A program made the position numbers and the translations under genes. The notes beneath the pieces are model-generated. The model searched no databases, was not told the DNA's origin, and worked only from the letters and a program-made list of their open reading frames with translations. 64,000 bases of DNA from Gammaproteobacteria bacterium (GTDB lineage: Bacteria > Pseudomonadota > Gammaproteobacteria > Steroidobacterales > PWYM01). This document shows, piece after piece, positions 13,293 to 41,794 of the stretch. How positions within the stretch are numbered: position 1 is the first letter of the stretch; every line of letters starts with the position of its first letter. Location of the stretch: NCBI GenBank assembly GCA_007127715.1, contig SKYU01000003.1, positions 2,507-66,506 on the forward strand. The letters run 5' to 3'.

Positions 13293-13293
13293 C

Positions 13294-15876: not shown

Positions 15877-15892
15877 GCCGGCCTCCCTGCGC

Positions 15893-22916: not shown

Positions 22917-22936
22917 GAGCGTGTCTCCTCGGGGTA

Positions 22937-24595: not shown

Positions 24596-24609
24596 CACGA
24601 CCGGCTCCG

Positions 24610-24897
24610 TCACTGCTCGAGCGGGTCGAGGTACTCGCGAACATAGGGCCCGTCGAGGCACTCGACCAGGCCCGGCGCCAGCGCCTTGAAATGCTCGGTG
24701 TTCTGGTGATCCTGCTCGGCCTGCTCGCTGGTGAAGGACTCGACCACGGCAAAGCGGTTGGGCTCGCGCAGGCGATAGAACTGGTAGATCAGCGTTTCGG
24801 GCTCGTGCGCATGCACCTTTTCCGTGAGGGCTTGCGCCAGGCGGATGAACTCCGCTTCCTTCTCGGGCTTGACGGTCATGCGGGAAATGAAAGACAT
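24610..24897 (-). CDS. ABM-domain monooxygenase-like protein (second copy)
   Basis: Track ORF 24610..24936 begins at a TTG. The ATG at 24897 gives MSFISRMTVKPEKEAEF, colinear with the first ABM copy. Lies 14 nt upstream of the synthetase start. Confidence 0.8.
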   Translation of the reverse strand: MSFISRMTVKPEKEAEFIRLAQALTEKVHAHEPETLIYQFYRLREPNRFAVVESFTSEQAEQDHQNTEHFKALAPGLVECLDGPYVREYLDPLEQ

Positions 24898-25046
24898 GCG
24901 CGCGGTCTTCTCGCTCACGGCCTGCTCCTCGGTCAACGATGTGTCGGAATGCGGAGTGCGTGCAGCGACCGTGACCCGGCCGGCCGGCCGTCGTCACACC
25001 CTCCCCCAAAGAGAGCCCGGATCATAGCATCGGCCCCCGAGCGAAG

Positions 25047-25064
25047 AAACAGTCATGACTGTTT
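25047..25064 (-). promoter_or_regulatory. Operator site S1: perfect 18-bp palindrome AAACAGTCATGACTGTTT upstream of the ABM-ACS-ABM operon
   Basis: Intergenic position. On the minus strand it is followed after 20 nt by the -10-like TATGAT (25026..25021). It shares AAAATAAACAGTCA with site S3. Confidence 0.7.
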
Positions 25065-25094
25065 ATTTTCTCGCCAGCCACTGCTCTGGCGTGC

Positions 25095-25772
25095 TCAGCG
25101 GTATTCGACCTCCACCTGCCACTGGTCACGCGGCTGCGCGTGGAGCTTCCAGTACTCCTCGGCGATGGTGTCCGGATCGAAGCGGGTTCCCGGATTGATG
25201 TGATCGAAGATGGTCACGGTGGCCACGTGGACATCGTGATAGGCCAGCTCCCGCGCCAGGCTGAAACAGAGGTTGCGCAGCCCCGCCTTGCCTATCCCGA
25301 GCGCGGCCACCTGCACGGGCGGATCCACCGCCGAACCGCCTCCGGTGAACAGGATCGTCCCACGGCGCTTGTAGCGCATGTCGGCCACGACCTGGCGCAC
25401 GCAGTGCAGGGCGCCGACCACGTTCACGCGGACGCTGTCGATCACGTCGAGCTCGGTGAGCAGGCTCGGTGCGCTGGTGCGGCGCAGGAAGGCGTTGAAG
25501 ATCAGCACCTCGGGTGCGCCGTGCGCCTGGCCGATCCGCTGGAACGCGGCAGCCACGGCCTTGCGGTCGGTGACGTCGGCCACGTGCATCGAACACTCGA
25601 TGCCCTCTTCGCGCAACTGCTCGTGGATCTCGGCGAGGCGCGCCTCGGTCCGCCCGAGCATGGCCACGTGAAAACCCTCGCGCCCGAAGCGCCGGCACAG
25701 CGCAAGTCCCATGCCGGGCCCGACCCCGGCGATCGCACAGACTTTCTTGTCCACCCGCACCCTCGCATCCAA
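25095..25772 (-). CDS. Short-chain dehydrogenase/reductase (SDR)
   Basis: Cofactor motif AIAGVGPGMGLALCRRF. 225 aa with an SDR-type fold pattern. Confidence 0.85.
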   Translation of the reverse strand: MDARVRVDKKVCAIAGVGPGMGLALCRRFGREGFHVAMLGRTEARLAEIHEQLREEGIECSMHVADVTDRKAVAAAFQRIGQAHGAPEVLIFNAFLRRTSAPSLLTELDVIDSVRVNVVGALHCVRQVVADMRYKRRGTILFTGGGSAVDPPVQVAALGIGKAGLRNLCFSLARELAYHDVHVATVTIFDHINPGTRFDPDTIAEEYWKLHAQPRDQWQVEVEYR

Positions 25773-25864
25773 GACCGGAGATCCCGGAGCGCTATGCTAT
25801 CATCGCCGCCGGCTGCAGGCGGCGCAGGATGCGTGCCGGCCGGACCGACAGGGATGACAGCATC

Positions 25865-26182
25865 ATGAGCGAGCTTCAGTACCACCCACTGATCCAGGCC
25901 GACGAACTGCCTGTCGGCAAATCGCGCTGCTTCGAGATCGGCGAACACCAGGTCCTGCTGTGCCACACGAAGGAGGGGTTCTTCGCGGTGCACAACATCT
26001 GCTCCCACGCCTATGCACGGCTGGACGAGGGCCGGCTGCGGGGGACGCGGGTCATCTGCCCGCTCCACGGAGCCTCCTTCGATGTGCGCGATGGCAGCGT
26101 CAAGGGCCCCCCTGCCTACGAGGGCATCCGCAGCTACCCCGTGCGCGTGACCGAGGGCCGCGTCGAGGTAGCCCTCGACTGA
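25865..26182 (+). CDS. Rieske [2Fe-2S] ferredoxin component
   Basis: 105 aa from MSELQYHPL. Rieske ligands CSHAY...CPLHGASF. Confidence 0.9.
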   Translation: MSELQYHPLIQADELPVGKSRCFEIGEHQVLLCHTKEGFFAVHNICSHAYARLDEGRLRGTRVICPLHGASFDVRDGSVKGPPAYEGIRSYPVRVTEGRVEVALD

Positions 26183-26203
26183 CGGCCCTGGCCTGCCCGC
26201 CGC

Positions 26204-27364
26204 CTAGCGGCGCTGGTCGAACCGTCGCCCCACCAGGGCCGCGGCAATGTTCGTTTTCTGGATGTCGACCGCGCCCCCGGCGATCCCCCAACCCCAGGCA
26301 TCGCGCAGGCGCCGCTCCATCGGGTAGTCCTTGGAATAACCGTAGCCGCCCATGAGCTGTACCGCGTGGCCAGCCACCTCGCGGGCAATCTCGTTGGCAA
26401 AGCACTTGGCCACCGAGGACTCGAGCACGCTGGGCAGTCCGTCCTGGGCGTTGCTCGCCGCACGCCAGATCAGAAGCCGCGCCGCGTCCACCCGCATCTT
26501 CATTTCGGCAAGTTTAAGCTGCACCGCCTGGAACTCGACGATCGGCTTGCCGAACTGCTCACGCTCCTGGACGTAGTCGAGCACATCCTCGAGCGCCCCC
26601 GATGCCTGGCCGAGCGCCATGGTGGCGTTGCCGCAGCGTTCGAGGTCGAACGCCTCCATGAGTTTGCGGAAGCCACCGGCAGGTACGATCACGTTCTCCA
26701 GCGGCAGCTCTACATTATCGAGGTAGATGTCGGAGGACGGCACACCACGGAAACCCATCAGTTCTTCCTGCGCGCCGAAGCTCAGCCCGGCGCGATCCTT
26801 CTCGACATACACCGCGCCGATTCCGCGAGCCCCGGGGTCATCGGACATCCGGCAGTACACGACGTAGCCATCGGCGTGACCGCCGCCTGAGCACCAGCGC
26901 TTGGTGCCACTGACGATGACCGTATCGCCACGGACCTCGGCGGTGGTCTTCAGATCGGTCAGTGCCGAGCCGGCCTGCGGTTCCGACATCGAGACGGCCA
27001 CGATCAGGTTGCCGCGGCAGACCTCCGGCACCACGCGCTGGCGAAGCGCCTCGCTGCCGAAACGCTCGATGGCGCGTACCGGACCCACGCAGGACTCGAA
27101 GACAGGAAAGGCCACGGCCGAGGAAATCTGCGCGAACTCCTCGAGGATGATCAGGGCCTCGAGATTACCCAGGCCCATGCCTCCGTACTGCTCGGGGACG
27201 TTGATGCCCAGAAACCCCAGCTCGGCAAACTCACGCACCAGCTCATGCGAGGGCGGCTCGCCCGTGCGTTCGATTTCTTCGGCGATTTTCGGCAGCCGTT
27301 CACGCGCGTACTTGCGGGCGGCCTGCTGCAGTTCCTTCTGCTCCTCGGTCAACTGGAAATCCAT
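26204..27364 (-). CDS. Acyl-CoA dehydrogenase
   Basis: 386 aa. ACAD N-terminal, middle and C-terminal patterns (GMGLGNLE, CSGGGHADGYVV, YEGTNDI-equivalent WGIAGGAVDIQKTNIA). Confidence 0.92.
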   Translation of the reverse strand: MDFQLTEEQKELQQAARKYARERLPKIAEEIERTGEPPSHELVREFAELGFLGINVPEQYGGMGLGNLEALIILEEFAQISSAVAFPVFESCVGPVRAIERFGSEALRQRVVPEVCRGNLIVAVSMSEPQAGSALTDLKTTAEVRGDTVIVSGTKRWCSGGGHADGYVVYCRMSDDPGARGIGAVYVEKDRAGLSFGAQEELMGFRGVPSSDIYLDNVELPLENVIVPAGGFRKLMEAFDLERCGNATMALGQASGALEDVLDYVQEREQFGKPIVEFQAVQLKLAEMKMRVDAARLLIWRAASNAQDGLPSVLESSVAKCFANEIAREVAGHAVQLMGGYGYSKDYPMERRLRDAWGWGIAGGAVDIQKTNIAAALVGRRFDQRR

Positions 27365-27451
27365 CTGCTTCTCCTTTCGTTATTGCAAGGCCCCCGCGGG
27401 GTGTGTAGCTTGCCTGCTCCCTGACCGGACATTTGCGGAGCCCTGTTCATC

Positions 27452-28255
27452 ATGCCCATCGCACACATCAACGGCCACGACATGTATTACGAACTCCACG
27501 GCAGCGGCGACCCGGCCATCTGCATGGGCGGCTGGGGAACGTTCTGTCACGGCGGCGACCGACACCTTGCCCGTGGACTGACGGACCGGTACACGGTGCT
27601 GCTGATCGACTACCGTGGCATTGGCGAATCCACCGACGACCTGTCGGTGCCACCGAGCATGAATCTCCATGCCCAGGACGTCATCGGCCTGCTCGACCAT
27701 CTCGGCTGGAGCCACGTGCACTTCATCGGGCTGGTCGGCATGGGCGCATGCATCTCGCAGGAAGTCGCCATCCAGCGACCCGACCTCGTGCGCTCGATGA
27801 TCAACATGGGCGCCTGGACATACTGCGACGACTTTCTCCGTGACCAGCTCGAGCTGTTCGCCATGGTGCATCGCGACTCGGGCTTCGAGGCCTTCCAGCG
27901 CTTCGTCACCGTGATGTCCTTCAAGCCGGAATACTACAACGCGCACAAGGACCGGCTGCTTGGTCCGAATGGCGGCTGGAAGGAGCTCAACGGGCGGCTG
28001 GAGGCGCACGAGCGCTTCGTCCGCGCCTGTATCGAACACGACGTACGCGATCGCCTCGGCCAGGTGAAGTGCCCGACGCTGGTGATCCACGCCGGCCAGG
28101 ACCTGGTCACCAGTCCACGCACCACACTGCCGATCGAGGAACTCATCCCCGGCGCCGAGGGCGTGATGATGGAAGACGTCGCGCACGTCGTCGCCGGCAA
28201 GGAAGAGAAAATCGCGTTCTGCGAGATCCTGCTCCCCTGGCTGGCGAAGCACTGA
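27452..28255 (+). CDS. Alpha/beta-hydrolase-fold protein lacking an obvious nucleophile
   Basis: HGSGDP...LIDYRGIGES; the elbow reads HFIGLVGMGACIS instead of GxSxG. The Asp (HAGQDLV) and His (EDVAHVV) positions are retained. Confidence 0.8.
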   Translation: MPIAHINGHDMYYELHGSGDPAICMGGWGTFCHGGDRHLARGLTDRYTVLLIDYRGIGESTDDLSVPPSMNLHAQDVIGLLDHLGWSHVHFIGLVGMGACISQEVAIQRPDLVRSMINMGAWTYCDDFLRDQLELFAMVHRDSGFEAFQRFVTVMSFKPEYYNAHKDRLLGPNGGWKELNGRLEAHERFVRACIEHDVRDRLGQVKCPTLVIHAGQDLVTSPRTTLPIEELIPGAEGVMMEDVAHVVAGKEEKIAFCEILLPWLAKH

Positions 28256-28270
28256 TCGGGGGAGACGCGC

Positions 28271-29455
28271 ATGAGCCTCGATTTCTCGCGCCTGCGGGTG
28301 CTCGACTTCGGCCGTTATGTCGCGGGCCCCTACTGCGCCACGCTGCTCGGCTACCTTGGCGCCGAGGTCATCCGGATCGAGAAACTTGACGGGGGCGAGG
28401 ACCGTTACATCGCCCCACTGGCCGAGACCGGCGAGGGCGGGGTGTTCCTGCAGACCGGATGCAACAAGCGCGGCATGACCCTGAACCCGCTGAAGCCACA
28501 GGGCCGGGAAATTCTCGCGCGGCTGGTGGCCACGGCCGACGTGGTCGTGGCCAACCTCACGCCCGCCGGCCTGGTACGGATGGGTCTGGACCATGACAGC
28601 CTGCGGGCCATCCGGCCGGATATCATCCTCACCACGCAGACCGCCTTCGGCGCCGAAGGGCCCGATGCCGAGCGTGGCGGATTCGATGGCGTCGGCCAGG
28701 CCATGTCGGGCGCGATGTACATGACCGGCACACCCGGTCAACCGGCCAAGGCGGCCGCGCCCTACGTGGATTACGCCACCGCGGTCCTCTCGGCCTTCGG
28801 CACGCTCGCCGCGCTGGTCCACCGCGAGCGCACCGGCGAAGGTCAGCACGTCGAGGCCTCGCTGCTCGGCACGGCCCTGGCGGTGTTCAACTCCCATCTC
28901 ATCGAGCAGGGCGTGGCCGCACCGGACCGCCGGCCCACCGGCAACCGGGTACAGACCTCGGCGCCCTCGGATGTGTTCTCCACCCGCGACGGCCATGTCC
29001 TCACCCACACCGTCGGCAACGGCCTGTTCCGGCGCTGGTGCGAACTGGTGGGCGAGCCCGGATGGATCACCGATCCGCGCTTTGCCACCGACCAGGGGCG
29101 CGGCGATCACCGCGACCTCATCTGCGCACGCATGGCCGAGTGGTGCGCCGGACGCAGCACCGCCGAGGCGCTCGAAGCGCTCGGGCGCGCAGGCATCCCC
29201 TGCGGACCGGTGATGGACCTGCAGCAGGCGCTGGACAATCCCCAGGTGGCGGCAATGGGCTGGCTGCAGGGCGTGTCGTTTCCCGGACTGCCTCGGCCGG
29301 CGCCGGTCGCCGACCTCCCGGTGAAGTTCTCCTCGCTGCCCGCTGGCATCCGCCAGGCGCCACCACGCCTTGGCGAACACACCGAGGCGATCCTCGCCGA
29401 GCTCGGCTACGGCGAGGACGAGATCGCTGCGCTGCGGGCCGCACGCGTCGTCTAG
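28271..29455 (+). CDS. Family III CoA-transferase (CaiB/BaiF-like)
   Basis: LRVLDFGRYVAGPYCATLLGYLGAEVIRIE...NKRGMTLN is the typical family III N-terminus. 394 aa. Confidence 0.92.
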   Translation: MSLDFSRLRVLDFGRYVAGPYCATLLGYLGAEVIRIEKLDGGEDRYIAPLAETGEGGVFLQTGCNKRGMTLNPLKPQGREILARLVATADVVVANLTPAGLVRMGLDHDSLRAIRPDIILTTQTAFGAEGPDAERGGFDGVGQAMSGAMYMTGTPGQPAKAAAPYVDYATAVLSAFGTLAALVHRERTGEGQHVEASLLGTALAVFNSHLIEQGVAAPDRRPTGNRVQTSAPSDVFSTRDGHVLTHTVGNGLFRRWCELVGEPGWITDPRFATDQGRGDHRDLICARMAEWCAGRSTAEALEALGRAGIPCGPVMDLQQALDNPQVAAMGWLQGVSFPGLPRPAPVADLPVKFSSLPAGIRQAPPRLGEHTEAILAELGYGEDEIAALRAARVV

Positions 29456-29493
29456 CATCCGGTGCATCGTCGCCCCAGGGGTCGTCACTGGAT

Positions 29494-30408
29494 TCAGACG
29501 GCGCTGACGCGATAGCCCATGCGCGGGAAATGCACGGCAAGCCGTCCGAGCTCAGGCGTCTCCCGCAGCACCACGACCTCATCGACATCCAGCACCAGCA
29601 GCTCGCCCTCGACGGGATCACGCCCGTAGTCATCGGCGGCGATGCTGACCCGCTGACCCGCACTCAGGCCGAGCGGATCGTCCGGATCCACCCGCGGCTC
29701 GCCCAGCGGCTCGGCCTCGCGTGCCTCGGCCCAGGCCTGCTCGGCCGTGATGGTCTCGCGCTCGCCATGGCCAAGCACCGCAACCCGGGCCTCCCAGTCG
29801 GGCAGACGCGCGAACGGCGCGAGGATCTCGCCCGCGTTCGCCAGAAACCCGCGCGCCATCCACAACGGAAAGTAGGCGCAGATGTCGGCCCAGCCCGGGG
29901 CGGCCCCGGTAACGAAATCCCGGCCATCGGCCAGCTGCCGATCGACCAGGCTGGCCTGGGCGCGAAGCTGGGTCAGCAGATGCGGGATCTCCTGGTCCAG
30001 CCGATCGAAATCCATGAATTCGAAAAACGCCTTCCGGTCCGCGAGCAGTGGCTCGGGCAGCTCGTCGTTCATTCCCATTGACAGCCCGGCACCCGGTTCG
30101 AAAAACGCGGTATCGCTCCAGTGTGACAGGGCCAGCCCCAGACCCGTGTCGCCGGTCGGGAACAGCGTGGGCACCGGCTGCCACTGCTCGAGCGCCTGGA
30201 CGATCCGCCGGGTGTCGCAGAAGATATCCGCCCCGAGCTGCATCACCGGGGTCTTGCGGTAGCCCCCGGTCAGGCCGGTCAACATCGGCTTCGGCATGAT
30301 CATGGGGATCTCCACCGAACGCCAGGCGAGCCCCTTGAGGCCCAATGCCAGCCGGGCTTTCTCCGCGAAAGGCGAGAGGTCGAAATGGTGCAGAATCGGC
30401 GTCGGCAT
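29494..30408 (-). CDS. Glutathione S-transferase family protein with a C-terminal extension
   Basis: Start at MPTPILHHFDLSPFAEKARLALGLKG (thioredoxin-like GST N-domain with SPF). About 90 extra C-terminal residues. Confidence 0.8.
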   Translation of the reverse strand: MPTPILHHFDLSPFAEKARLALGLKGLAWRSVEIPMIMPKPMLTGLTGGYRKTPVMQLGADIFCDTRRIVQALEQWQPVPTLFPTGDTGLGLALSHWSDTAFFEPGAGLSMGMNDELPEPLLADRKAFFEFMDFDRLDQEIPHLLTQLRAQASLVDRQLADGRDFVTGAAPGWADICAYFPLWMARGFLANAGEILAPFARLPDWEARVAVLGHGERETITAEQAWAEAREAEPLGEPRVDPDDPLGLSAGQRVSIAADDYGRDPVEGELLVLDVDEVVVLRETPELGRLAVHFPRMGYRVSAV

Positions 30409-30490
30409 GCAGGCTCCCCCCGGGTCCATATCGCCGTGATGATCGGCGGGCCGCCGATGCCGCGCGAGTATCGCACGGCGCCCCCCAAAA

Positions 30491-30508
30491 AAACAGTCAG
30501 GCTTGTTT
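30491..30508 (+). promoter_or_regulatory. Operator site S2 (AAACAGTCAGGCTTGTTT) plus promoter of the Rieske-oxygenase/thiolase operon
   Basis: Intergenic position. After 20 nt comes a consensus -10 TATAAT (30529..30534), with TTTCTT at -35 spacing. The downstream GCGCCC..CCCTAT block is shared with site S3. Confidence 0.7.
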
Positions 30509-30684
30509 CTTTTGGAGCGCCCTGTCCCTATAATCGAGACAAGTCATTGCCGTGCGAGCACGTCGCCGCCGATGACAGCACTTCGTTTCCGCATCCTCGA
30601 TGTCGGGACGATGGGGACAGGGACGTCCCGACTCCGCCACGTGCGGCCATTCGTGATCAGCCTGAAACCGGGACGCAGACCACC

Positions 30685-31896
30685 ATGGAAGCAGCGATTA
30701 CCGACTATCTCCGCGAGGGCATGGCGTACGAGCGCAGCCGCTCGGGCCCGCCGGATCATTTCCCGCAGCTGCCGGACATTCCCGGCGGCCGCTATGTCGA
30801 CCCCGAATTCCTGGCCCTGGAGCAGGCGGGGCTGTGGAAGCGCGCCTGGCTGTACGCTGCCCACAGCGACGAGCTCCCGGAGCCTGGCAGCTTTCTGCTG
30901 TTCACGCGCACGGGCAGCCCGATCTTCCTCATCCGCGGGAAAGACAGCAAGGTGCGCGCGTTCTACAACACCTGCCGCCACCGTGGCGGCCCGCTGGTGA
31001 AGGAGGCCTGCGGCCATACCCGCGGACTGGTCTGCGGCTACCATGGCTGGACCTACGATTTCGAGGGTCGACTCGTGAACCTGCGCGACAAGCGCGACTT
31101 CGTCGGCCTGGATGCGAGCCAGCGCTCGCTGGTGGAAGTACGCTGCGAGCAGCTGGGCAACTGGATCTTCATCAACGAGGACCCCGAAGCCGAGCCCCTG
31201 CTCGAGCACCTCGGGCCCATCCCGGCATATTTCCAGCAGTATGACATCGACAACATCCGTTTCGTCGAGAAACACGGCTTTGACGTCGAGTGCAACGTCA
31301 AGGTGCTGATGGACGCATTTCTCGAGGTCTACCACCTCAAGTCCATCCATCAGAACACCGTGGACCGTTTCCTCGACCATCGTGGCTCGAAGATCGTGCT
31401 GTGGAAGAACGGCCACTCGCTGATGCTCACGCCCAACCGCCGGCCGGACTGGGTCGATCCGGGCACCGTGGGCATGCAGCAGATCCCCTCGGTCGACGAG
31501 CTGTTCGCGAAGAACAACCCGTCGTTCAACCTCTATCCGAACCTGGTCACCCCGATGGCCGACTCCGGCATGCCGTTTCTGCTGTTCTGGCCGACCGGAC
31601 CGCGATCCATGCACATCGAGGTCCACTGGTTCGCGCCCGACTGGGGCGATGGCGAGCCGCCTGCCCTGTGGGAGACCCGCATCAGCAACTTCGACCGCAT
31701 CCTCGAAGAGGACACGCAGTTCGCGCCACAGATCCAGAACTCGGTCGAGTCCCCAGGGTTCAAGGGCATGCCGCTGAATTACCAGGAGCGGCGGATCTAC
31801 CACTGGCATGAGGAGCTCGATCGACGTATTGGCCGCGACCGCGTGCCCGCGTCGCTGCGGGTCGAACCCGTGCTGCACGATTTCATCGAGGGCTGA
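30685..31896 (+). CDS. Rieske non-heme iron oxygenase, alpha subunit (no beta subunit adjacent)
   Basis: Start at MEAAITDYL (403 aa). Rieske motif CRHRGGPLV...CGYHGWTY. Iron ligands in EVYHLKSIH. Confidence 0.9.
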   Translation: MEAAITDYLREGMAYERSRSGPPDHFPQLPDIPGGRYVDPEFLALEQAGLWKRAWLYAAHSDELPEPGSFLLFTRTGSPIFLIRGKDSKVRAFYNTCRHRGGPLVKEACGHTRGLVCGYHGWTYDFEGRLVNLRDKRDFVGLDASQRSLVEVRCEQLGNWIFINEDPEAEPLLEHLGPIPAYFQQYDIDNIRFVEKHGFDVECNVKVLMDAFLEVYHLKSIHQNTVDRFLDHRGSKIVLWKNGHSLMLTPNRRPDWVDPGTVGMQQIPSVDELFAKNNPSFNLYPNLVTPMADSGMPFLLFWPTGPRSMHIEVHWFAPDWGDGEPPALWETRISNFDRILEEDTQFAPQIQNSVESPGFKGMPLNYQERRIYHWHEELDRRIGRDRVPASLRVEPVLHDFIEG

Positions 31897-31899
31897 GGC

Positions 31900-33342
31900 T
31901 TGGGCGCCGGCATTCTCGGATGGGGCGCCTATATCCCGCTGCTGCGGCTGCCGCGCGAGCGCATTGTCGAGCACACCGCCTGGCTGAACCCGGGGCTGCG
32001 TGCCCAGGGGCGGGGTGAGCGGGCGATCTGCAACTGGGACGAGGATGCCCTGACCATGGCCGTGGAGGCCGCACGCGACTGCCTGCAGGGCAGGCGCCCG
32101 ACTCTGGCGGAGCTCCAGCTCGCCTCCACCACCCTGCCCTTCGCCGATCGCAGCAACGCCGGCATGCTCGCTGCGGCACTCGATCTCGACGAATCGGTGG
32201 CCACGCTCGAGAGCGGCGGCAGCCTGCGCTGCGCCACCTCCAGCCTGCTCAGCCGCCTTCGTGCCGGCGCCGGCGCCGGCGAATGCCTCGTCGTGGCCTC
32301 CGAGCACAGGCTGGCGCGTCCGGGCAGCGGCGGCGAGCTGCGTTACGGTGATGCCGCCACCGCACTGCACCTCGGCGACGGCGATGATGTGGTGGCCCGT
32401 TTCCTGGGCGGCGCCACCATGGCCCGGGACCTGGTCGATCACTACCGCGCGAGCGACAGCCGCTACGACTATGCACTCGAGGAGCGCTGGATTCGGGACG
32501 AAGGCTACTTCAAGCTTGTCCCGGAGGTCTGTACGCAGGCCCTGGCCGACGCGGGACTGGAGGCCGCCGACGTGGACACGCTGGTCTTCCCCGGGCCCGT
32601 GCGGGTCGGCCAGGCACTGTGCAGGCGCCTGGGCATCGAGGCCGACGCGCTGGCTGACGATCTTGCTGGCCGCTGTGGCCACGCGGGCAGTGCCCACCCG
32701 CTGCTGATGCTGGCCCACGTACTGGAACAGGCTCGCCCGGAGCAGGTGATCCTGGTGCTCGGCTTCGGCCAGGGGGCAGACGCCCTGCTGTTCCGCGTCA
32801 CCGAGGCCATCGCGGCCCGACGACCGGCACTCGGGGTCCATGGCCACCTCGCGCTGCGCCGGGAGGAAACCCACTACCTGCGTTACCTGTCGTTCACCGG
32901 CCAGATCGGGATCGACTGGGGCGCGCGCGCCGAGCACGACAAGCGGACCGCCCAGTCGACCGCGTTCCGCAAACGCCGCGCGGTGACCGCTTTCGTGGGC
33001 GGCCGCTGCAGCGCCTGCGGTACCGCGCAGTTTCCGCGGACCCGTGCCTGCGTCCACTGCGGCGCGATCGACACCCAGGAAGAACATCGTTTCGCCGACA
33101 GCCGTGCGAAAGTGAAGTCCTACACCGAGGACTGGCAGGCACACTCGCCCGCCCCGCCATTGATGTACGGCAGCGTGAGCTTCGCCGAGGGAGGCAGCCT
33201 GATGATGGAGTTCACCGACTTCGCTCCCGGGGAGATCGCCGTCGGGACGCCACTGCGCATGGTGTTCCGCATCAAGGACGTCGATGAGAAGCGCGGCTTC
33301 ACCCGGTATTTCTGGAAGCCGGCTCCGGCACGGAGCGCCTGA
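31900..33342 (+). CDS. HMG-CoA-synthase/KAS-III-like thiolase-fold domain fused to DUF35 (zinc ribbon + OB fold)
   Basis: TTG start 7 nt after GAGGG. The N-terminus GILGWGAYIPLLRL is typical of the HMGCS-like family. The C-terminus carries CSACGTAQFPRTRACVHCG followed by an OB-fold-like segment. Confidence 0.75.
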   Translation: MGAGILGWGAYIPLLRLPRERIVEHTAWLNPGLRAQGRGERAICNWDEDALTMAVEAARDCLQGRRPTLAELQLASTTLPFADRSNAGMLAAALDLDESVATLESGGSLRCATSSLLSRLRAGAGAGECLVVASEHRLARPGSGGELRYGDAATALHLGDGDDVVARFLGGATMARDLVDHYRASDSRYDYALEERWIRDEGYFKLVPEVCTQALADAGLEAADVDTLVFPGPVRVGQALCRRLGIEADALADDLAGRCGHAGSAHPLLMLAHVLEQARPEQVILVLGFGQGADALLFRVTEAIAARRPALGVHGHLALRREETHYLRYLSFTGQIGIDWGARAEHDKRTAQSTAFRKRRAVTAFVGGRCSACGTAQFPRTRACVHCGAIDTQEEHRFADSRAKVKSYTEDWQAHSPAPPLMYGSVSFAEGGSLMMEFTDFAPGEIAVGTPLRMVFRIKDVDEKRGFTRYFWKPAPARSA

Positions 33343-33343
33343 C

Positions 33344-34549
33344 ATGGCCCGCGGCATCCGCGACAAGGTGGCGATCATCGGCATGGGCTGCTCACGCTTC
33401 GGTGAGCGCTGGGACTGCGGGCATGAGGACCTGATGGTCGAGGCCTATGCCGAGGCGATCGCCGATGCCGGTATCGACAAGGCCGATCTCGACGCTGCGT
33501 GGCTGGGCGTGTTCTTCGACGAGCAGAACACCGGCAAGTCGGCGCTGCCCCTGTCGATGGCGCTGCGCCTGCCGAACATCCCCGTCACACGCGTGGAGAA
33601 CCTCTGCGCTACCGGTACCGAGGCCCTGCGCGGCGCCGCCTATGCCGTGGCCGCCGGTGCCTGTGACATCGCCCTCGCCATGGGCGTGGAGAAACTCAAG
33701 GATACGGGCTACTCGGGCCTGCCCGAGCGCACCAAGGGGACGTTCGAGGATCTCTATCTGCCGAACAGCACCGCGCCCGGCGCCTTTGCCCAGCTTGCCA
33801 GCGCCTATGCCAACCGTCACGGCGTCCCCATGGACGACCTCAAGCGCGCCATGGCCCACATCTCGTGGAAAAGCCACCAGAACGCCCGAACCAACCCCAA
33901 GGCGCATCTGCGCAACACCCCGTCGATCGAGGACATCCTGAACGCACCGATGGTCTCCTACCCGCTCGGCACCTATGACTGCTGCGGCGTGAGCGACGGC
34001 GCGGCATGTGCCATCGTCACGACCCCGGAGATCGCCCGCAGCCTCGGGCGCCACGACGACCTCGTCACCATCAAGGCCCTGCAGCTGGCGCCGTCCAACG
34101 GCGTGGAGATGGGTCACGATGCCTGGGACGGCAGTCACACCATCACCACGCCGCTGGCCGCGAAGCGGGCCTATGAAGAGGCCGGTATCCGCGATCCGCG
34201 TCGGGATCTCGACCTCATCGAGGTACATGACTGCTTCTCGGTCACCGAACTGGTGATCATGGAGGACCTCGGACTCTCGCCACCGGGCGGAGCCATTCGC
34301 GACGTGCTCGACGGCGTCTATGACGCCGACGGCGAGGTGCCCTGCCAGATCGACGGCGGCCTGAAGTGCTTCGGCCATCCCATTGGCGCGTCGGGGCTGC
34401 GCATGGTCTACGAAATCTACCTGCAGCTGCTCGGTCGCGCCGGTGACCGCCAGCTGTCGAATCCAAAACTGGGACTGACGCACAACCTCGGCGGCATCCC
34501 GATTCGCAACGTGGCAGCCATCTCCGTGATCGGCCTGCACGGTGCCTGA
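33344..34549 (+). CDS. SCP2/Ltp-type thiolase (thiolase-like lipid-transfer protein family)
   Basis: The ATG lies 1 nt after the upstream stop. VAIIGMGCSRFGE...VENLCATGTEALRGAAYAV (active-site Cys) and ...GHPIGASGLRM are present. Confidence 0.9.
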   Translation: MARGIRDKVAIIGMGCSRFGERWDCGHEDLMVEAYAEAIADAGIDKADLDAAWLGVFFDEQNTGKSALPLSMALRLPNIPVTRVENLCATGTEALRGAAYAVAAGACDIALAMGVEKLKDTGYSGLPERTKGTFEDLYLPNSTAPGAFAQLASAYANRHGVPMDDLKRAMAHISWKSHQNARTNPKAHLRNTPSIEDILNAPMVSYPLGTYDCCGVSDGAACAIVTTPEIARSLGRHDDLVTIKALQLAPSNGVEMGHDAWDGSHTITTPLAAKRAYEEAGIRDPRRDLDLIEVHDCFSVTELVIMEDLGLSPPGGAIRDVLDGVYDADGEVPCQIDGGLKCFGHPIGASGLRMVYEIYLQLLGRAGDRQLSNPKLGLTHNLGGIPIRNVAAISVIGLHGA

Positions 34550-34579
34550 CTCCGCACGCTTGACCAGGGGACACACGCG

Positions 34580-35479
34580 ATGACCACCATGAAGGCCACG
34601 CCCATCAAAGAAGAGCCGACACGTCGCTGGGGCTTCACCGACGAGGAGCTCGCCTCACGGCCGACCGTCTACCGTGACGATCTGCTCGCCGACCAGGTGT
34701 TCATCGTCTCCGGCGGCGGCAGCGGGCTGGGTCGCGCCATGACCTTCCTGCTCTCGCGCCTGGGCGCCCGGGTGATGATCTGCGGACGGCGCGAGGAGAA
34801 GCTGGAGGACTGCCGCGAGGCGGTGGCGCGACTGATCCCCGGCAGCGAGGTCGCCACCACCGCGATGACCATTCGTGATCCCGAGCAGGTCGACGCGCTG
34901 GTCGAGCGGACCTGGCATGAATTCGGACGGCTCGATGGCATCGTCAACAACGGGGGTGGACAGTTTCCGCAGGCCGCGATCGACTTCAGCGTCAAGGGCT
35001 GGAATGCGGTGATCGACACCAACCTCAACGGCACCTGGTACATGATGCAGTCGGCTGCCCGCCGCTGGCGAGATGAGCAGCGACCGGGGAGCATCGTCAA
35101 CATCGTCGCACTGGTGCACCGGGGAATGCCCCAGGTGGCACACACCTGCGCCGCCCGTGCAGGTGTGGTGTATCTGTCAAAGACCGTTGCGGTGGAGTGG
35201 GCGCCGCTGGATATCCGCGTGAACTGCGTGGCGCCGGGGTCGGTGGAGACCGAGGGATTCAACGTCTACCCGCCTGCGGCGGCGGAGGCGTTCCGTTACT
35301 CCAACCCTCTGCATCGGCTGGGCGACGCCTACGACATCGCCGAGGCGGTCGTCTACCTGCTGGCACCCTCGGGCAAGTTTGTCACCGGCGAGGTGCTGAC
35401 GGTGGACGGCGGCGGTCAGCAGTGGGGCGATGTCTGGCCAGCCGGCATCCCGGACTATTTCCGTATCCCGGAGCGTTGA
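34580..35479 (+). CDS. SDR-family oxidoreductase (enoyl/dienoyl-CoA reductase-like)
   Basis: VSGGGSGLGRAM cofactor motif and NNGGGQF block. Resembles PECR / 2,4-dienoyl-CoA reductase-type SDRs. Confidence 0.88.
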   Translation: MTTMKATPIKEEPTRRWGFTDEELASRPTVYRDDLLADQVFIVSGGGSGLGRAMTFLLSRLGARVMICGRREEKLEDCREAVARLIPGSEVATTAMTIRDPEQVDALVERTWHEFGRLDGIVNNGGGQFPQAAIDFSVKGWNAVIDTNLNGTWYMMQSAARRWRDEQRPGSIVNIVALVHRGMPQVAHTCAARAGVVYLSKTVAVEWAPLDIRVNCVAPGSVETEGFNVYPPAAAEAFRYSNPLHRLGDAYDIAEAVVYLLAPSGKFVTGEVLTVDGGGQQWGDVWPAGIPDYFRIPER

Positions 35480-35488
35480 ACCGACCCG

Positions 35489-36127
35489 TCAGCGCCGCCG
35501 CCGTGATGGCGGAGGATCTTCGTCGCCGTAGGGGTTGTAACCGCGTTCCCGGCGTTCCCGGGGATCGATCCCGCTGCTCCCGGCACCTTGACGCGCCTTG
35601 CTGGGCCCGCTGCGCAGTGCCCAGGCCCACACGTCCCCCTCGGCCTCTCCATGACGCCGCCCACGTGGACCATGACCCGAGAGGCTGTCGTAGGGATTGG
35701 TGCCGGCGTCGGCAGGCTGCGCGAGAGACAGGGTCTGCAGGGCCCAGTCTTCAGGGCCCGGCATCTTTTGCGCTACAGGCTCCGGGGCAGTCCGACCATG
35801 GTCAGCAGCCTCGGCAGCGTTCGCAGCCTCCCTGGCCTGCTGCTGGCGAGCCACCTCACCACTGACGACGGTCAGGTCGCGCTGCTCGAGCGGCTCATCG
35901 AGACTGAGGGCCGGGTTATCCAGCCGGCGAAGCAGCAGGGTGGTTTCCTCAAGATCGAACGCGCCGGTGCTGGTGTTCCACTCCCACACCGCACCCCCAT
36001 GGCGGAAGGTCACCTTGCCGGCATCGCTGTCACGGACAGAACGCGTGCTGGCGGCGGCGTCTCCCACTCGATCATCCGACGCTGATCGCGCCCTCGGCGG
36101 TTTGCCCGGCGGTGCTCTTTCGCTCAT
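35489..36127 (-). CDS. Hypothetical protein (low-complexity, repeated LSL...NPY[DG] motifs)
   Basis: Start chosen at MSERAPPGKPP (212 aa). No recognisable domain. Contains LSLDEP, LSLAQPADAGTNPYDS and GYNPYGD. The coding call rests on ORF length and position only. Confidence 0.4.
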   Translation of the reverse strand: MSERAPPGKPPRARSASDDRVGDAAASTRSVRDSDAGKVTFRHGGAVWEWNTSTGAFDLEETTLLLRRLDNPALSLDEPLEQRDLTVVSGEVARQQQAREAANAAEAADHGRTAPEPVAQKMPGPEDWALQTLSLAQPADAGTNPYDSLSGHGPRGRRHGEAEGDVWAWALRSGPSKARQGAGSSGIDPRERRERGYNPYGDEDPPPSRRRR

Positions 36128-36194
36128 GACCTGCCCCGCCTCACGTATTGACGGGGGACATGGGTAACAGACAAACGCGCGGAGAGTCAACCTG

Positions 36195-36234
36195 ACGTGC
36201 CCCGGGGTGGCGCGAGCCGCCCCCCGGGGCACGT
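36195..36234 (-). terminator. Strong GC stem-loop immediately after the TonB-dependent receptor stop (no U-tract)
   Basis: ACGTGCCCCGGGG-N14-CCCCGGGGCACGT, a perfect 13-bp stem, begins 8 nt after the stop at 36243. Confidence 0.5.
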
Positions 36235-36242
36235 TCTGCAGA

Positions 36243-38795
36243 CTAGAAGTTGAATCCCAGTTCCAGGCCGAAGCTCCGCGGCATGCCCCACTGGGTATGG
36301 GTCCACAGGGTCGCCACGGACTGGCTCGCGATCCGGTAGCGCTTGTCGCCAAGGTTCTTGCCGTAGGCCCGCACGAAATAGCGGCCATCGCGATCGTTGT
36401 AGGTCACCGAGGCGTTGAACAACGTCTTGGTATCCAGGAAGGCGTCGAACTCACGCCCGGCCACCGCGATGTAGAACAGGTTGCGATCCTCGTAATACAC
36501 CTCGCCCGAGATATCGATGTAACCACCCGCCAGCTCGATCTCGTAGGTCGCCGAGATCGCGCCGCTCTTCTTCGGCGAGCGCGGCACCGGCAGGCCGCTG
36601 AGGTCCTGCGAAATCGGCAGGATACGGCCACCGGTGAGCGGATCTACCAGCTCTTCCTGCTCGAGGAAGAAATTCTTGTAGCTGGCATCCAGCCAGGCGG
36701 CCTGAGCGCGCACCCGGAAATTGTCGGTCAACAGTGCCTGGAACTCGAGCTCCACACCCTTGGCCTCGACCTTGGCGGCGTTGTAGAACACGGTCTCCTG
36801 GAACTCCACGCCACCACGCTCGGTGATCACGTTGGCTGCACGCTGGGCGTCGGAGTAGCGCACAAGAAAGGCCGTCGGGTTGAAGCGCAGGCGGCCGTCG
36901 GCCGTCTCGAACTTCAGGCCGAGTTCGTAGTTGGTGGCGAACTCGGGATCCACAGGCCTGGTCAGGGCGGGCACCAGCAGGCCACTGGTGCCGGTCTGGT
37001 CGTTGTAGCCGCCGGCCTTGTAACCACGGGACACGGTCAGGTAGGACAGCAGGTCGTCGGTGATTCGATAGGCACCGGTCACTCGCCAGCTCGGCTCATT
37101 CCAGGCCTGCCGGAGGTTCTCGAAGCCGGGCGTGGACGAGTCGACGATCGTGCCGCCGGGGAAGCGGATAAAATCGCCCGCATCCAGCGGCTCGTTGAGG
37201 TCGTCTGCAGTCAGGCCGGGGTTATTGGGATCGAGTTCCGAGAACGGCACCTGTGTGCGCCCAGCCCAGCTACGCTTGTCACGGGTGTAGCGGAAACCGG
37301 CACCCAGCGTGAATCGGTCGTTGAACTCGTAGGTCACATCGGCGTAGCCGGCCAGCGAATCGGAATCCTGCCGGTTGCACAGCACCGAAGGCGTGTTGTT
37401 GTTGAAGGTCGCCGGCAGACCGAGTGCGGCAAAATCAAGCGCCAGGTCGATGAACCCCAGCACCTGCACCACACAGAACGCAGCGTCGTTCTCCTGGTAG
37501 AACCCGCCGACCACGAAGTTCAACGGACCGGAGAGATCGGAGGCGATACGCGCCTCGAACTGGGTGGTCTGGCGGGTGGTGCTGCGGTTGGCGTCGAACA
37601 GCGAGAGCACCTCTCCCGTGACCGTGTTGACCGGCGCGGCACCCGTGTAGGTATTGGGCAGGATCTCGTCCTGGTCGCGACGCCCCGCTGACGCAATCAG
37701 GGTGTAGTCGGGGCTGAAGGCCCAGTCGAAGTTCAGGTAGAAGCCATCGACATCGATCCGCTGCCCACGACCCATGCCCAGCAGGGCATCATTGCGCTGG
37801 GTGGAGCCCATGTTCTTGACCGGGTCCCCATCCGGACGGGTGAAGCCCAGCACGTTCCAGAGGTAGGGCCCGTCTGGCGGAGTGTCGTTGAACGCAGGCA
37901 CGGCGTCGGAGCGGTCGCGCAGGATCTCGTACTGCAGCAGCAGGGTCATGTCCTCGTTGATGTCCCACTGAGCCTTGACGCGCCCGTTGAACACATCCTC
38001 ACCGCCGCTGCGCTCGCCACTACCGCGCCCGGACTCTCCGGTGAACCCTTCGATCACGAAAGGCTCGAAGGAGCCGTCGAACAGCCCCAGCGTGTTGATC
38101 GGTCCGTAGGGCGCACCCAGCCGGTAATAACCATCGGACTTCACGTAGCCGCCGACGAAACGCAGGGCGAACACATCCTCGACAATCGGAACATCCAACG
38201 CCCCCATGACGCGACGCTCATTGAAGCTGCCGTAGGCCACGCGGCCCTGGCCGCCGAGCTCGCTCATGTTCGGGCGCTTGCTGCGGATGTTGACCGCGCC
38301 GCCGGTGGTGTTCTTGCCGAACAGCGTCCCCTGCGGGCCACGCAGGAACTCGATGCTCTCGATGTCGAAGGTGTCGAGCAGCTGGGTCTGCACGCTGGGG
38401 ATGACGAAATCATCGATCTGGACGCTCACCGGCGCGTCCTGGTAGACGATGATGTCGGTCAGGCCGACGCCGCGCATCGCGAAGGAGGCGGCGTTGAAGG
38501 CGGTGATGCGCGCGGCGGAGAACCCGGGGACTGCGGCGGCCAGCCCGGAGATGTCACGGGCCACCATGCGGTCGATGTCGTCGGGGCTGAACGCCGAGAC
38601 GGAGACAGGCGTATCCTGGAGTGCCGTCTCGACGCGCCGGGTGGCCGTCACCATGATCTCGTCCAGCGCGCGTGCGCGCTCGCCCTCGGGCTGCTGCGCC
38701 AGGGCGGCGGTGACGCTGGCGGCGAGCAGCGCGGTCCCGGTCAGTGAAACCACAGCCGCACGACGCGACCGGCCGACAATGGCAGATGCTTGCAT
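36243..38795 (-). CDS. TonB-dependent receptor
   Basis: Signal peptide, TonB-box-like DEIMVTATRR, plug (IEFLRGPQGTLFGKNTTGGAVNI), 850 aa barrel, and terminal ...LELGFNF. Confidence 0.93.
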   Translation of the reverse strand: MQASAIVGRSRRAAVVSLTGTALLAASVTAALAQQPEGERARALDEIMVTATRRVETALQDTPVSVSAFSPDDIDRMVARDISGLAAAVPGFSAARITAFNAASFAMRGVGLTDIIVYQDAPVSVQIDDFVIPSVQTQLLDTFDIESIEFLRGPQGTLFGKNTTGGAVNIRSKRPNMSELGGQGRVAYGSFNERRVMGALDVPIVEDVFALRFVGGYVKSDGYYRLGAPYGPINTLGLFDGSFEPFVIEGFTGESGRGSGERSGGEDVFNGRVKAQWDINEDMTLLLQYEILRDRSDAVPAFNDTPPDGPYLWNVLGFTRPDGDPVKNMGSTQRNDALLGMGRGQRIDVDGFYLNFDWAFSPDYTLIASAGRRDQDEILPNTYTGAAPVNTVTGEVLSLFDANRSTTRQTTQFEARIASDLSGPLNFVVGGFYQENDAAFCVVQVLGFIDLALDFAALGLPATFNNNTPSVLCNRQDSDSLAGYADVTYEFNDRFTLGAGFRYTRDKRSWAGRTQVPFSELDPNNPGLTADDLNEPLDAGDFIRFPGGTIVDSSTPGFENLRQAWNEPSWRVTGAYRITDDLLSYLTVSRGYKAGGYNDQTGTSGLLVPALTRPVDPEFATNYELGLKFETADGRLRFNPTAFLVRYSDAQRAANVITERGGVEFQETVFYNAAKVEAKGVELEFQALLTDNFRVRAQAAWLDASYKNFFLEQEELVDPLTGGRILPISQDLSGLPVPRSPKKSGAISATYEIELAGGYIDISGEVYYEDRNLFYIAVAGREFDAFLDTKTLFNASVTYNDRDGRYFVRAYGKNLGDKRYRIASQSVATLWTHTQWGMPRSFGLELGFNF

Positions 38796-38892
38796 GACTT
38801 CTCCCCCAGTTGGACGGACACCACAGCATCCGCTCGTCTGCTGACGGGCGGATGCCGCGACAGAGACGCCATTACAGCGGCCTGTTCAAAAA

Positions 38893-38911
38893 AAAGCAAG
38901 CACGACTGTTT
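38893..38911 (-). promoter_or_regulatory. Operator site S4 (minus strand AAACAGTCGTGCTTGCTTT) upstream of the TonB-dependent receptor
   Basis: Lies in the divergent intergenic region. After 16 nt on the minus strand comes the -10-like TGTAAT (38876..38871). Confidence 0.6.
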
Positions 38912-39019
38912 GTGGTATTCGCGACACATGAACCGAAGAAAGATCAGAAGCTTACAGAGGCTGCGTCGGTCGCCGTCGACAAGCCGACAGGGGGACATGC
39001 CCATACTGCACTGCAAAAT

Positions 39020-39037
39020 AAACAGTCACGCTTGTTT
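39020..39037 (+). promoter_or_regulatory. Operator site S3 (AAACAGTCACGCTTGTTT) upstream of the second Rieske oxygenase
   Basis: Lies in the divergent intergenic region. After 16 nt comes the -10-like TATCCT (39054..39059). The flanks are homologous to site S2. Confidence 0.65.
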
Positions 39038-39131
39038 TTTGCCGCGCCCGCCCTATCCTTGACGCTGTTACCCTAAGCGGCAAACGGGTGTTTCGCCCGC
39101 GCCGAGTCACCGTCACAGGAGCAGAGCCCTC

Positions 39132-40493
39132 ATGGCCTACAACTACGAGCATGGCCCCGTCGTGAATCCGAATGCCCCGGAAGACTCGCTCGAGGCCAAG
39201 CGCCCCTACGTCGATAACGGTACCGACGTGGTCTCGCCAGACCGCTATTACAGTCCCGAGTTCATGGCGAAGGAATGGGAGCGCATGTGGCCGCGCGTCT
39301 GGCTGATTGCCGGCCCACGCACCGATCTTCGCGAGCCCGGCGACTACTTCGTGTTCAACGTCGGCCCCGAGTCCTTCGTGATCACGCTGGACGACAACCA
39401 TGTGGTCCGCGCGCACTACAACGTCTGTCCCCACCGCGGAAACCAGCTGGTGCTGAACGAGCGCGGCAGCGTGCCCCGCTTCACCTGCTCGTTCCACTCG
39501 TGGAGCTTCGAACTCGACGGGCAGCTGAACTCGATCACCGATGAGGACAGCTTCCGCCCCGAAGTGCTCTGCCCCCGCCCCCAGCTCTCGAGCGTCCGCT
39601 GCGAGGAGCATGCCGGGCTGATCTGGATCAACATGGATGGCAAGGCGCCGCCGCTGAAGGAGTATATCGGGCTGCCCGAAGGCTACCTGGAGAGCTACCG
39701 GATCGAGGACATGTTCGCGGTTCGCCATGTCTCCAGCGAGTGGGCGGCAAACTGGAAGAACGGCATCGATGCCTTCTACGAGAGCTATCATCTGCACGCC
39801 GTCCACCCGCAGACCTCGACGGTCATGGACGATCTTGGTGTGCAGTACGACCTCTACCCGAACGGTGCCTCACGCATGATCGTACCGATCTGCAAGAAAA
39901 GCCCGCGGGTACCGGACCAGGAGTCGGTCGATGCAGGGCTCGAGTTCATGATCCGTGATGCCGGCGCCGACCCGACGCAGTACGAGGGCTCGGCCATCGG
40001 CGTGCGCGAGTTCATCCAGCGCTCCAAGCGGGTGCGCGCCGAGAAGCTTGGACTGGATTACAGCGAGCTCAGCGACGCCCAGCTGACCGACAGCTGGGCC
40101 ACAGGCATCTTCCCCAACGTGCAGATTGGCCTGCATCCGGAAGGTGCCTTCCTGATGCGCTTCCTGCCGCACGAATCCGACCCCAACCGCTTCTACTACG
40201 ACACCATCACGCTGTTCCGCCCGGCCGACGACCCGAGCTACACCGTACCGGCCTGGATGGGCCTGCCGGAAGGAATGGACACCAGCGGCGAGACCCGCCC
40301 CGACACCGAGCACGTCGGCATCGGCGAGCCCGCGGGGCTTGGGCTGGTCCTCGACCAGGATTCCGAACTGCTGCCTGTGGTGCAGAAGGGCATGCGCTCG
40401 CGGGGCTTCCGCGGTCCGCTGTGGGGTGAACAGGAAGTCCGTATCCGTCACTTCCACAAGGAACTGGACCGCTACATCAACGGCGAGAAATGA
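39132..40493 (+). CDS. Rieske non-heme iron oxygenase, alpha subunit (second, no beta subunit)
   Basis: 453 aa. Rieske motif CPHRGNQLV...CSFHSWSF. Iron ligands in DAFYESYHLHAVH. An AGGAG RBS lies upstream. Confidence 0.9.
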   Translation: MAYNYEHGPVVNPNAPEDSLEAKRPYVDNGTDVVSPDRYYSPEFMAKEWERMWPRVWLIAGPRTDLREPGDYFVFNVGPESFVITLDDNHVVRAHYNVCPHRGNQLVLNERGSVPRFTCSFHSWSFELDGQLNSITDEDSFRPEVLCPRPQLSSVRCEEHAGLIWINMDGKAPPLKEYIGLPEGYLESYRIEDMFAVRHVSSEWAANWKNGIDAFYESYHLHAVHPQTSTVMDDLGVQYDLYPNGASRMIVPICKKSPRVPDQESVDAGLEFMIRDAGADPTQYEGSAIGVREFIQRSKRVRAEKLGLDYSELSDAQLTDSWATGIFPNVQIGLHPEGAFLMRFLPHESDPNRFYYDTITLFRPADDPSYTVPAWMGLPEGMDTSGETRPDTEHVGIGEPAGLGLVLDQDSELLPVVQKGMRSRGFRGPLWGEQEVRIRHFHKELDRYINGEK

Positions 40494-40569
40494 CCTCCCT
40501 GGTGTCGACCTGGAGCTGATCGACCCAGTCGTCGATCGACACGGGCATCCAGGACAGCACCTCCAGAGA

Positions 40570-40603
40570 CCTGGCGGCGAGTGGATCGTCGCCAGGTTTT
40601 TTT
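40570..40603 (+). terminator. Rho-independent terminator
   Basis: CCTGGCGGCGA-GTGGA-TCGTCGCCAGG (one mismatch) followed by TTTTTTT, about 77 nt after the oxygenase stop. Confidence 0.75.
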
Positions 40604-40738
40604 GCCATCGATGGCCGCCTGGGAACGCTCCGGACCACCGGCCAGCGCGGGCCGAGCGCCTGCGCGGCCGCGCCAGGCGCCGACAGGCGATGCCGGCTGC
40701 GGTATCCTTTGCCGCTGGACCAACAGCGGAGGTTGACC

Positions 40739-41731: not shown

Positions 41732-41794
41732 TCCAACCGGGCTCCCTCGGGCGAACAGGCGCTGTATCCCGCGGTGCAGACCGCGCCCGTGGGG

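Follow-up and report, generated by a model that had tools for sequence, protein, structure and literature searches.

Four palindromic sites in a catabolic island

The 64,000-nucleotide stretch of DNA analysed here, which we call the window (contig SKYU01000003.1, positions 2,507 to 66,506, of the gammaproteobacterial assembly GCA_007127715.1), carries an island of catabolic genes in which four intergenic sites, S1 to S4, resemble one 18-bp palindrome. An initial annotation, made from the sequence alone, had proposed these sites as a shared operator, and all four are present. Read towards the genes that they precede, S1 (25047..25064, minus strand) is AAACAGTCATGACTGTTT, confirmed as a perfect 18-bp palindrome; S2 (30491..30508, plus strand) is AAACAGTCAGGCTTGTTT, in which the promoter-proximal half is degenerate; S3 (39020..39037, plus strand) is AAACAGTCACGCTTGTTT; and S4 (38894..38911, minus strand) is AAACAGTCGTGCTTGCTT. 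S4 had been described as a 19-mer, which proves to be the 18-mer plus one extra T. The A-rich 5′ flanks reported earlier are there, and T-rich 3′ flanks as well.

Genes were called by codon-position G+C, because the window is 67% G+C, and annotated with Pfam; some start codons were refined. The operator links the four transcription units first assigned to it. S1 precedes an operon (22623..24897, minus strand) in which an acyl-CoA synthetase gene (22937-24595) is flanked by two ABM-domain genes (24610-24897 and 22623-22916), a trio also found in locus L086 (L numbers designate sequences retrieved for comparison). S2 precedes the first Rieske oxygenase operon (30685..35479, plus strand; Pfam and NCBIfam), which comprises the oxygenase alpha gene (30685-31896), an HMG-CoA-synthase-like/DUF35 fusion (31900-33342), an SCPx-type thiolase (open reading frame (ORF) 33284-34549) and an SDR gene (34580-35479); its synteny is kept in L001-L004 and L085. 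S4 reads towards a TonB-dependent receptor gene (36243..38795, minus strand; Pfam Plug and beta-barrel), which has the orthologous position in L001 and L003. S3 reads towards the second Rieske oxygenase (alpha gene 39132-40493, plus strand), which is followed on the same strand by a nitroreductase-like gene (40520-41332) and by two small ORFs that match no Pfam family (41333-41731 and 41732-42091). The short gaps between these genes suggest that 39132..42091 is one operon; in L001 both the oxygenase gene and the nitroreductase-like gene recur, separated by an opposite-strand L-PSP gene. The cluster proteins tested against NCBIfam fell below curated thresholds except for the thiolase, which matched a generically named acetyl-CoA acetyltransferase model.

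The sites are not a product of chance. At two mismatches or fewer, the pattern AAACAGTCNNGNNTGTTT matched the S1-S4 loci alone in the 64 kb, whereas dinucleotide shuffles gave an expectation of 0.03, and the shuffle statistics of the TetR loci described below likewise rule out a chance origin. A half-site scan (AAACA[G/A]TCA, at most one mismatch) returned the S1-S4 loci and two isolated one-mismatch half-sites inside genes; the full motif is absent from the coding sequence of the window. A looser 16-mer with three mismatches found nothing above chance in the window (29 matches versus 21.4 expected), and at least 120 matches of a 14-base motif pattern to a public collection were noise on viral contigs (L087-L206).

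The −10-like hexamers named in the initial annotation were found downstream of all four sites: TATGAT (25021..25026, minus strand) and TATAAT (30529..30534, plus strand) lie 20 nt downstream of S1 and S2, respectively, TATCCT (39054..39059, plus strand) lies 16 nt downstream of S3, and TGTAAT (38871..38876, minus strand), a weak match, lies 17 nt past the S4 18-mer and 18 nt past its TTGCTT. No sigma-70-type −35/−10 pair was detected anywhere in 24900-39200. The extended likeness of S2 and S3 (GCGCCC..CCCTAT; 30509-30534 versus 39038-39059) also holds, the two stretches differing in length by 4 nt. Since L001 and L003 do not clearly share it, it may be a local promoter duplication in the lineage of the window.

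Conservation and geometry of the operator

Homologues of the second oxygenase are numerous (1592 at E ≤ 1e-30) and belong mostly to uncultured Gammaproteobacteria. The syntenic loci L001/L002 (75% protein identity) and L003/L004 (68%) have the motif, identically oriented, at each of the three orthologous promoters, and conservation at orthologous promoters holds in genomes whose proteins are 60-77% identical. Among 80 metagenome loci whose oxygenases are 59-69% identical, 28 have the motif too, at no more than two mismatches. Altogether the related loci, about 2.2 Mb, yielded 149 unique sites, and all but one (148/149) lie at most 450 nt upstream of a homologue of a cluster gene that reads away from the site. 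This distribution, together with the promoter conservation, supports the earlier proposal that a shared operator defines a regulon.

The catalogued sites fall into several classes: the divergent TonB-receptor/Rieske2, SDR/ferredoxin and SDR/TetR promoters, the Rieske1 operon, the acyl-CoA dehydrogenase/CoA-transferase promoter, the ABM-acyl-CoA synthetase (ACS) promoter, and the promoters of a 2-oxoacid dehydrogenase E1 gene and a CMD-family gene. Each site in the window has counterparts among them. That of S1 occurs at orthologous ABM/ACS promoters in 12 related loci; most of those of S2 (L001, L003 and others) are perfectly palindromic; the consensus of the TonB-receptor class, AAACaGTCnnGcTTGcTT, is conserved in 18 loci; and the counterpart of S3 is found in 14 Rieske2-class promoters. 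Within the divergent TonB-receptor/Rieske2 region of the window (38894-39037), S4 and S3 are 108 bp apart and point their conserved halves towards one another, and such a face-to-face pair recurs in L001, L003, L005, L013, L023, L025, L030 and L034. Separately, a set of oxygenase loci without the operator (L008-L012, L015, L018-L020) shares another conserved element, GAACTTGAACTTTATTCAAATATTCCACACAATA, upstream of the same gene, which suggests a different regulator in that lineage.

Over the related loci the consensus is a perfect 18-bp palindrome, AAACA(G/A)TCATGA(C/T)TGTTT, and 45 of the 149 sites are themselves perfect palindromes. The initial annotation had called the operator oriented. 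The asymmetry that it saw is real, but on the evidence of these palindromes the operator itself is symmetric and its orientation is not intrinsic. Across genomes the distal half, AAACAGTC, is invariant, while degeneracy of the proximal half is conserved at the TonB-receptor promoters of relatives, where that half reads G(C/T)TTGCTT, and at their Rieske2 promoters, where it is mostly GCTTGTTT; S2 in the window shows such degeneracy too. A −35-like TTG that overlaps this half, or a tuned affinity, may lie behind the asymmetry.

Among the related loci, the gap from a site to its −10-like hexamer is 9-21 nt and that to the start codon 30-440 nt. A spacing of 20-21 nt between operator and −10-like box prevails in several non-orthologous promoter classes: 11 of 15 unique Rieske1 promoters (all at exactly 20 nt), 33 of 38 promoters of the SDR/PQQ operon, 6/8 in the E1a class and 7/12 in the ACS class, which ranges from 18 to 21 nt. 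Rieske2-class promoters vary more widely across genomes, from 9 to 20 nt. Where two divergent promoters share one palindrome, their −10 boxes lie at unequal distances from it, one at 20-21 nt and one at 10-11 nt; the latter is a second preferred spacing, one helical turn off the first.

A TetR-family gene linked to the operator

No DNA-binding regulator domain was found by Pfam among about 68 ORFs covering the window, small unannotated ORFs included, and tblastn with the candidate TetR protein gave no match there; the earlier statement that the window shows no helix-turn-helix (HTH) regulator therefore holds. Several related loci that bear the motif encode such a regulator. One is L085 (also L079/L031; a 2.99-Mb contig), where the gene for a 214-aa TetR_N protein immediately follows that of the oxygenase and is divergent from an SDR gene; the 170-bp tetR-SDR intergenic region contains the tandem elements AAACAATCACCTGTGATTG then AAACAGTCAAGACTGCTT. 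Orthologues occur in L016/L026 (87%), L017/L086 (66%) and L024 (58%), as well as in L031 and L079. The orthologous group comprises 780 homologues at E ≤ 1e-10, from Woeseiaceae, Xanthomonadales/‘Lysobacterales’ metagenome-assembled genomes and Elongatibacter sediminis, of which strain CH-27 (L218) is a cultured carrier, and its HTH is nearly invariant (SRGA[T/M]LHHFPS).

A genome scan with the TetR protein yielded 80 species-level loci from Woeseiaceae, Steroidobacteraceae and unclassified Gammaproteobacteria. The operator accompanies the gene in most of them: 51 have at least one site at no more than one mismatch, amounting to 73 sites in 1.22 Mb versus none in each of 20 shuffles. The tetR gene is always divergent from an SDR gene, and the next divergent promoter, 1-3 kb from tetR, typically has a perfect palindrome. 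Conserved motif-like elements also occur in the tetR-SDR promoter itself, in essentially all of the 74 loci (of 80) with upstream sequence. Woeseiaceae have AAGCAGTCTTGACTGTTT beside CAATCACnnGTGATTG, that is, a clear site plus a 9+4+9 variant, and the clade nearest the window has tAGCAGTCAGGCCTGCTGGTTTCAATCATCTTTGACTTTT. The 9+4+9 elements, in which the operator half-sites are separated by a centre 4 bp longer (L085, about 12160-12200; L287, 15860-15905), are conserved in Woeseiaceae-type and Steroidobacteraceae-type loci and may reflect a second binding mode or two dimers.

Comparison with near relatives indicates where the gene lies relative to the window. By blastn, window 1-988 matches the ends of the TetR loci L245 (84.6%) and L246 (82.7%) in reverse orientation, which places tetR about 9 kb to the left of the window in these relatives. 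The genes there run in the order ABC permease, glucose/sorbosone dehydrogenase, pirin and LysR, then an operator-bearing sub-cluster in which genes for a PQQ dehydrogenase, a Rieske protein and an SDR are separated by a perfect site from a ferredoxin gene, followed by an SDR gene divergent from that for TetR. Exact look-ups of the window's oxygenase and permease gave no record, but a 98%-identical permease (P0241) led us to the Logan contig SRR20069387_1921 (L287), which aligns to window 1-7931 at 94.6% identity. Past the equivalent of window position 1, L287 has the same sub-cluster, with a perfect operator, AAACAGTCTTGACTGTTT, 6.4 kb out and a gene for a 223-aa TetR_N protein (15962-16633) 7.8-8.5 kb out; this protein is 61% identical to the TetR protein P0121 over its full length. 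The regulator gene of the window's genome, as judged from this close relative, thus very probably lies about 8 kb outside the window and about 33 kb from S1. The regulon reaches past the coordinates originally given for it: tetR and a fifth, perfect operator lie 6.4-8.5 kb to the left in L287.

The candidates of L085, L246 and L287 all match PF00440 (TetR_N), and the structure model has a canonical TetR fold (pLDDT 88), although its nearest solved structures are generic. The nearest Foldseek matches include EbrR, EthR2 and Rv0078, at TM scores of about 0.6 and no more than 24% identity. A profile search of the PDB matched mainly the HTH, with a few uncharacterised TetR regulators matching weakly (E ~1e-9) near full length, and NCBIfam gave sub-threshold matches alone, to the BetI, ScbR, FasR and AcrR models. 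The initial annotation had left the family open between GntR/FadR and TetR/PsrA types; with a linked TetR gene, the TetR family is the most probable, and the GntR/FadR assignment is rejected because there is no linked GntR gene: no GntR domain was found among the window ORFs or the called genes of L001-L004, L085, L086 and L287.

Mode of control and significance

One explanation for these observations, which we favour and regard as reasonably probable, is that S1 to S4 are operators of a single TetR-family repressor, of the group of P0121 and the L287 protein (15962-16633), which would cover the −35 position until released by a ligand. TetR proteins are mostly ligand-released repressors with palindromic operators, the dimer occluding the promoter until the ligand binds. 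Here a TetR dimer would bind the 18-bp consensus palindrome, the factor most probably being encoded some 7.8-8.5 kb left of window position 1, in the second sub-cluster of the regulon described above, whose Rieske protein would be a further oxygenase. Because each operator lies directly upstream of a −10-like box, it would cover the −35 position, and a protein bound there would block RNA polymerase at the target promoters. Such occlusion finds support in the arrangement of the sites, since one palindrome can serve both divergent arms and the Rieske2 spacing varies. A substrate or intermediate of the pathway would then release TetR; an acyl-CoA, possibly formed by the regulon's own synthetase, is our guess at the effector, by analogy with other systems.

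Several known regulators offer points of comparison. KstR2 is a TetR-type repressor whose regulon was defined by its motif and comparative genomics (PMC3068626). In KstR2 and KstR, which govern cholesterol catabolism in Mycobacterium and Rhodococcus, a short palindrome is likewise repeated between divergent catabolic operons, the genes likewise encode acyl-CoA synthetase, CoA-transferase, acyl-CoA dehydrogenase, thiolase and SDR proteins, and the regulator gene lies within the regulon (PMC3068626). The KstR2 operator, however, is the 14-bp AnCAAGnnCTTGnT as opposed to the 18-bp AAACAGTCATGACTGTTT here, its hosts are Actinobacteria and not Gammaproteobacteria, and the pathway here is apparently not one of steroid ring degradation. 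KstR2 was also absent from the best 60 of 119 PDB sequence matches and from the 50 structural matches listed; given this and the different operator, we rejected membership of the KstR2 regulon.

PsrA of Pseudomonas, FadR of Thermus and Bacillus, and PaaR are TetR repressors of CoA-dependent catabolic genes with AAAC...GTTT palindrome ends, as here, and the mode of action is likely, by analogy, that of such acyl-CoA-responsive regulators. The PsrA consensus is G/CAAAC(N2-4)GTTTG/C, however, so that the gap between AAAC and GTTT is 2-4 bp compared with 10 bp in our operator. The GntR-type FadR of Escherichia coli has a superficially similar core (xxTGGTCnGACCAxx versus CAGTCATGACTG) and the link to fatty acyl-CoA, but it differs in half-site and spacing, and no GntR gene accompanies the motif in the loci examined; membership was rejected. 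A literature search found no paper with the operator sequence, and none by keyword that describes the cluster or its regulator.

Some observations weigh against a simple repressor encoded next to this island, and should temper the interpretation. The TetR gene was seen in a contig 94.6% identical to the window and not in the window's own genome. No site at one mismatch or fewer is present in 29 of the 80 TetR loci, although 17 of the 80 span less than 10 kb. In the clade nearest the window (L245, L246 and L287), the tetR-promoter elements are degenerate (5 mismatches as 9+9) or have a centre 4 bp longer, and autoregulation of tetR in this clade is uncertain. Finally, the spacing of 20-21 nt in most promoter classes would centre the operator near −41.5 relative to the presumed transcription start, with no detectable sigma-70 −35 box, a geometry reminiscent of activators. 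One may thus postulate that the same TetR protein activates, or acts both ways, from about −41.5, replacing the −35 element in the manner of class II activators. The −10 boxes are strong (TATAAT, TATACT), and the preferred 10-11 nt spacing differs by one helical turn; the prevalent spacing and the lack of a detected −35/−10 pair together speak for an activating or dual role. Activators are rare in the TetR family, however, and at 10-11 nt the protein would occupy the −35 position itself, where it could not activate. The Rieske2 spacing of 9-20 nt fits activation poorly as well, and because promoters within a class are often orthologous, their common spacing is not independent evidence. We consider activation, alone or combined with repression, unlikely. 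A bolder form of this idea is equally unlikely in our judgement: that TetR is not a simple repressor but exerts activation or dual control through several binding modes, and that the regulon marks a novel CoA-thioester/Rieske/HMGCS-DUF35/thiolase pathway in widespread sediment Gammaproteobacteria. The phased −41.5/−31.5 positions, the strong −10 boxes lacking a −35 element, the conserved asymmetry and the 4-bp-longer tetR site could be taken to mean such control.

It is similarly improbable that the palindrome is the target of a different, unlinked factor (a GntR/FadR-type regulator, say, or another global one) and that tetR is merely a member of the regulon. The weak tetR-promoter elements near the window would fit this, as would the lack of any regulator within 10 kb of the oxygenase in L001-L004, and the GTC-N2-GAC core has what we take to be a superficial likeness to sites of the FadR subfamily of GntR. 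Yet in the neighbourhoods examined no HTH gene besides tetR recurs, whether GntR, CRP/FNR or another type (a LysR gene occurs once, beside pirin, in L246), whereas across 80 species the TetR orthologue alone among regulators accompanies the motif, and a perfect 18-bp palindrome is typical of TetR operators. Class II CRP/FNR geometry fits the promoters with 20-21 nt spacing but not those with 9-11 nt, and a CRP/FNR gene was in no neighbourhood examined. A far more remote idea is that the sites act as RNA or DNA structure, either as a terminator hairpin or as a REP-like repeat. S1 lies 30 nt past the stop codon of the upstream SDR gene, with runs of A and of T around it; its folding energy is −12 kcal/mol (z = −3.5). 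S2, S3 and S4, however, fold no better than shuffles (z = −0.66, 0.05 and 1.36), the stems are AT-rich, no terminator-like call or Rfam match was obtained at any of the four sites, and it is the sequence that is conserved, one half (AAACAGTC) being invariant, without compensatory changes. The folding, terminator and Rfam results largely refute this reading, and repression by the linked TetR protein is the one we favour.

The remaining genes of the island (25095..30429) have no operator in their intergenic regions by the half-site scan of this genome. They encode an SDR (25095-25772, minus strand), an acyl-CoA dehydrogenase (26204-27364, minus strand), an alpha/beta hydrolase (27452-28255, plus strand), a family III CoA-transferase (28271-29455, plus strand) and a GST (29494-30429, minus strand), all by Pfam. 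In L085/L031, the divergent acyl-CoA dehydrogenase/CoA-transferase promoter does carry a site. A 105-aa Rieske-type [2Fe-2S] ferredoxin (25865-26182, plus strand; PF00355/PF13806), divergent from the SDR gene and also without an operator, is likely the electron carrier for the two oxygenases; its orthologue in L086 lies at 7634-7987.

Other features of the window stand apart from the regulon. An operon-like run without the operator (12072-18223, minus strand) encodes a kynureninase-like aminotransferase, a PrnB/IDO-like haem protein, an amidohydrolase and a second TonB-dependent receptor, and may be an indole- or tryptophan-type catabolic unit. Overlapping ORFs at 50058-50628 (minus strand), for an MNT-like nucleotidyltransferase and a HepT-like RNase, would by their domains form a type VII toxin-antitoxin pair; as they are in different frames, they are possibly alternative calls and not two genes. 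A low-complexity Arg/Pro/Ala-rich ORF of uncertain coding status and without a Pfam match (35489 to about 36130, minus strand) fills the 760-bp gap between the SDR and TonB-receptor genes. A fasciclin-domain protein is encoded at 8221-9063 (minus strand), with an opposite-strand ORF (8248-8940) that has no Pfam match.

The control logic that we propose is a textbook one, namely a TetR repressor and a palindromic operator repeated over a catabolic island; the value of the regulon lies in what it delimits, a widespread and uncharacterised catabolic pathway. The operator links two to three Rieske oxygenases, the SCPx thiolase and the HMG-CoA-synthase-like/DUF35 fusion beside it, the acyl-CoA synthetase with its flanking ABM genes and the TonB-dependent receptor, as well as SDRs, ferredoxin and PQQ dehydrogenase; some genomes add a 2-oxoacid dehydrogenase. 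The cluster occurs widely among uncultured Woeseiaceae, Steroidobacteraceae-like and ‘Lysobacterales’ bacteria, in genomes recovered from sediments and waters. The set of sites gives a position weight matrix for annotating the regulon in metagenomes, and the operator and TetR would together form a sensor pair that offers an experimental handle on the substrate of the pathway, by reporter or ligand screen.

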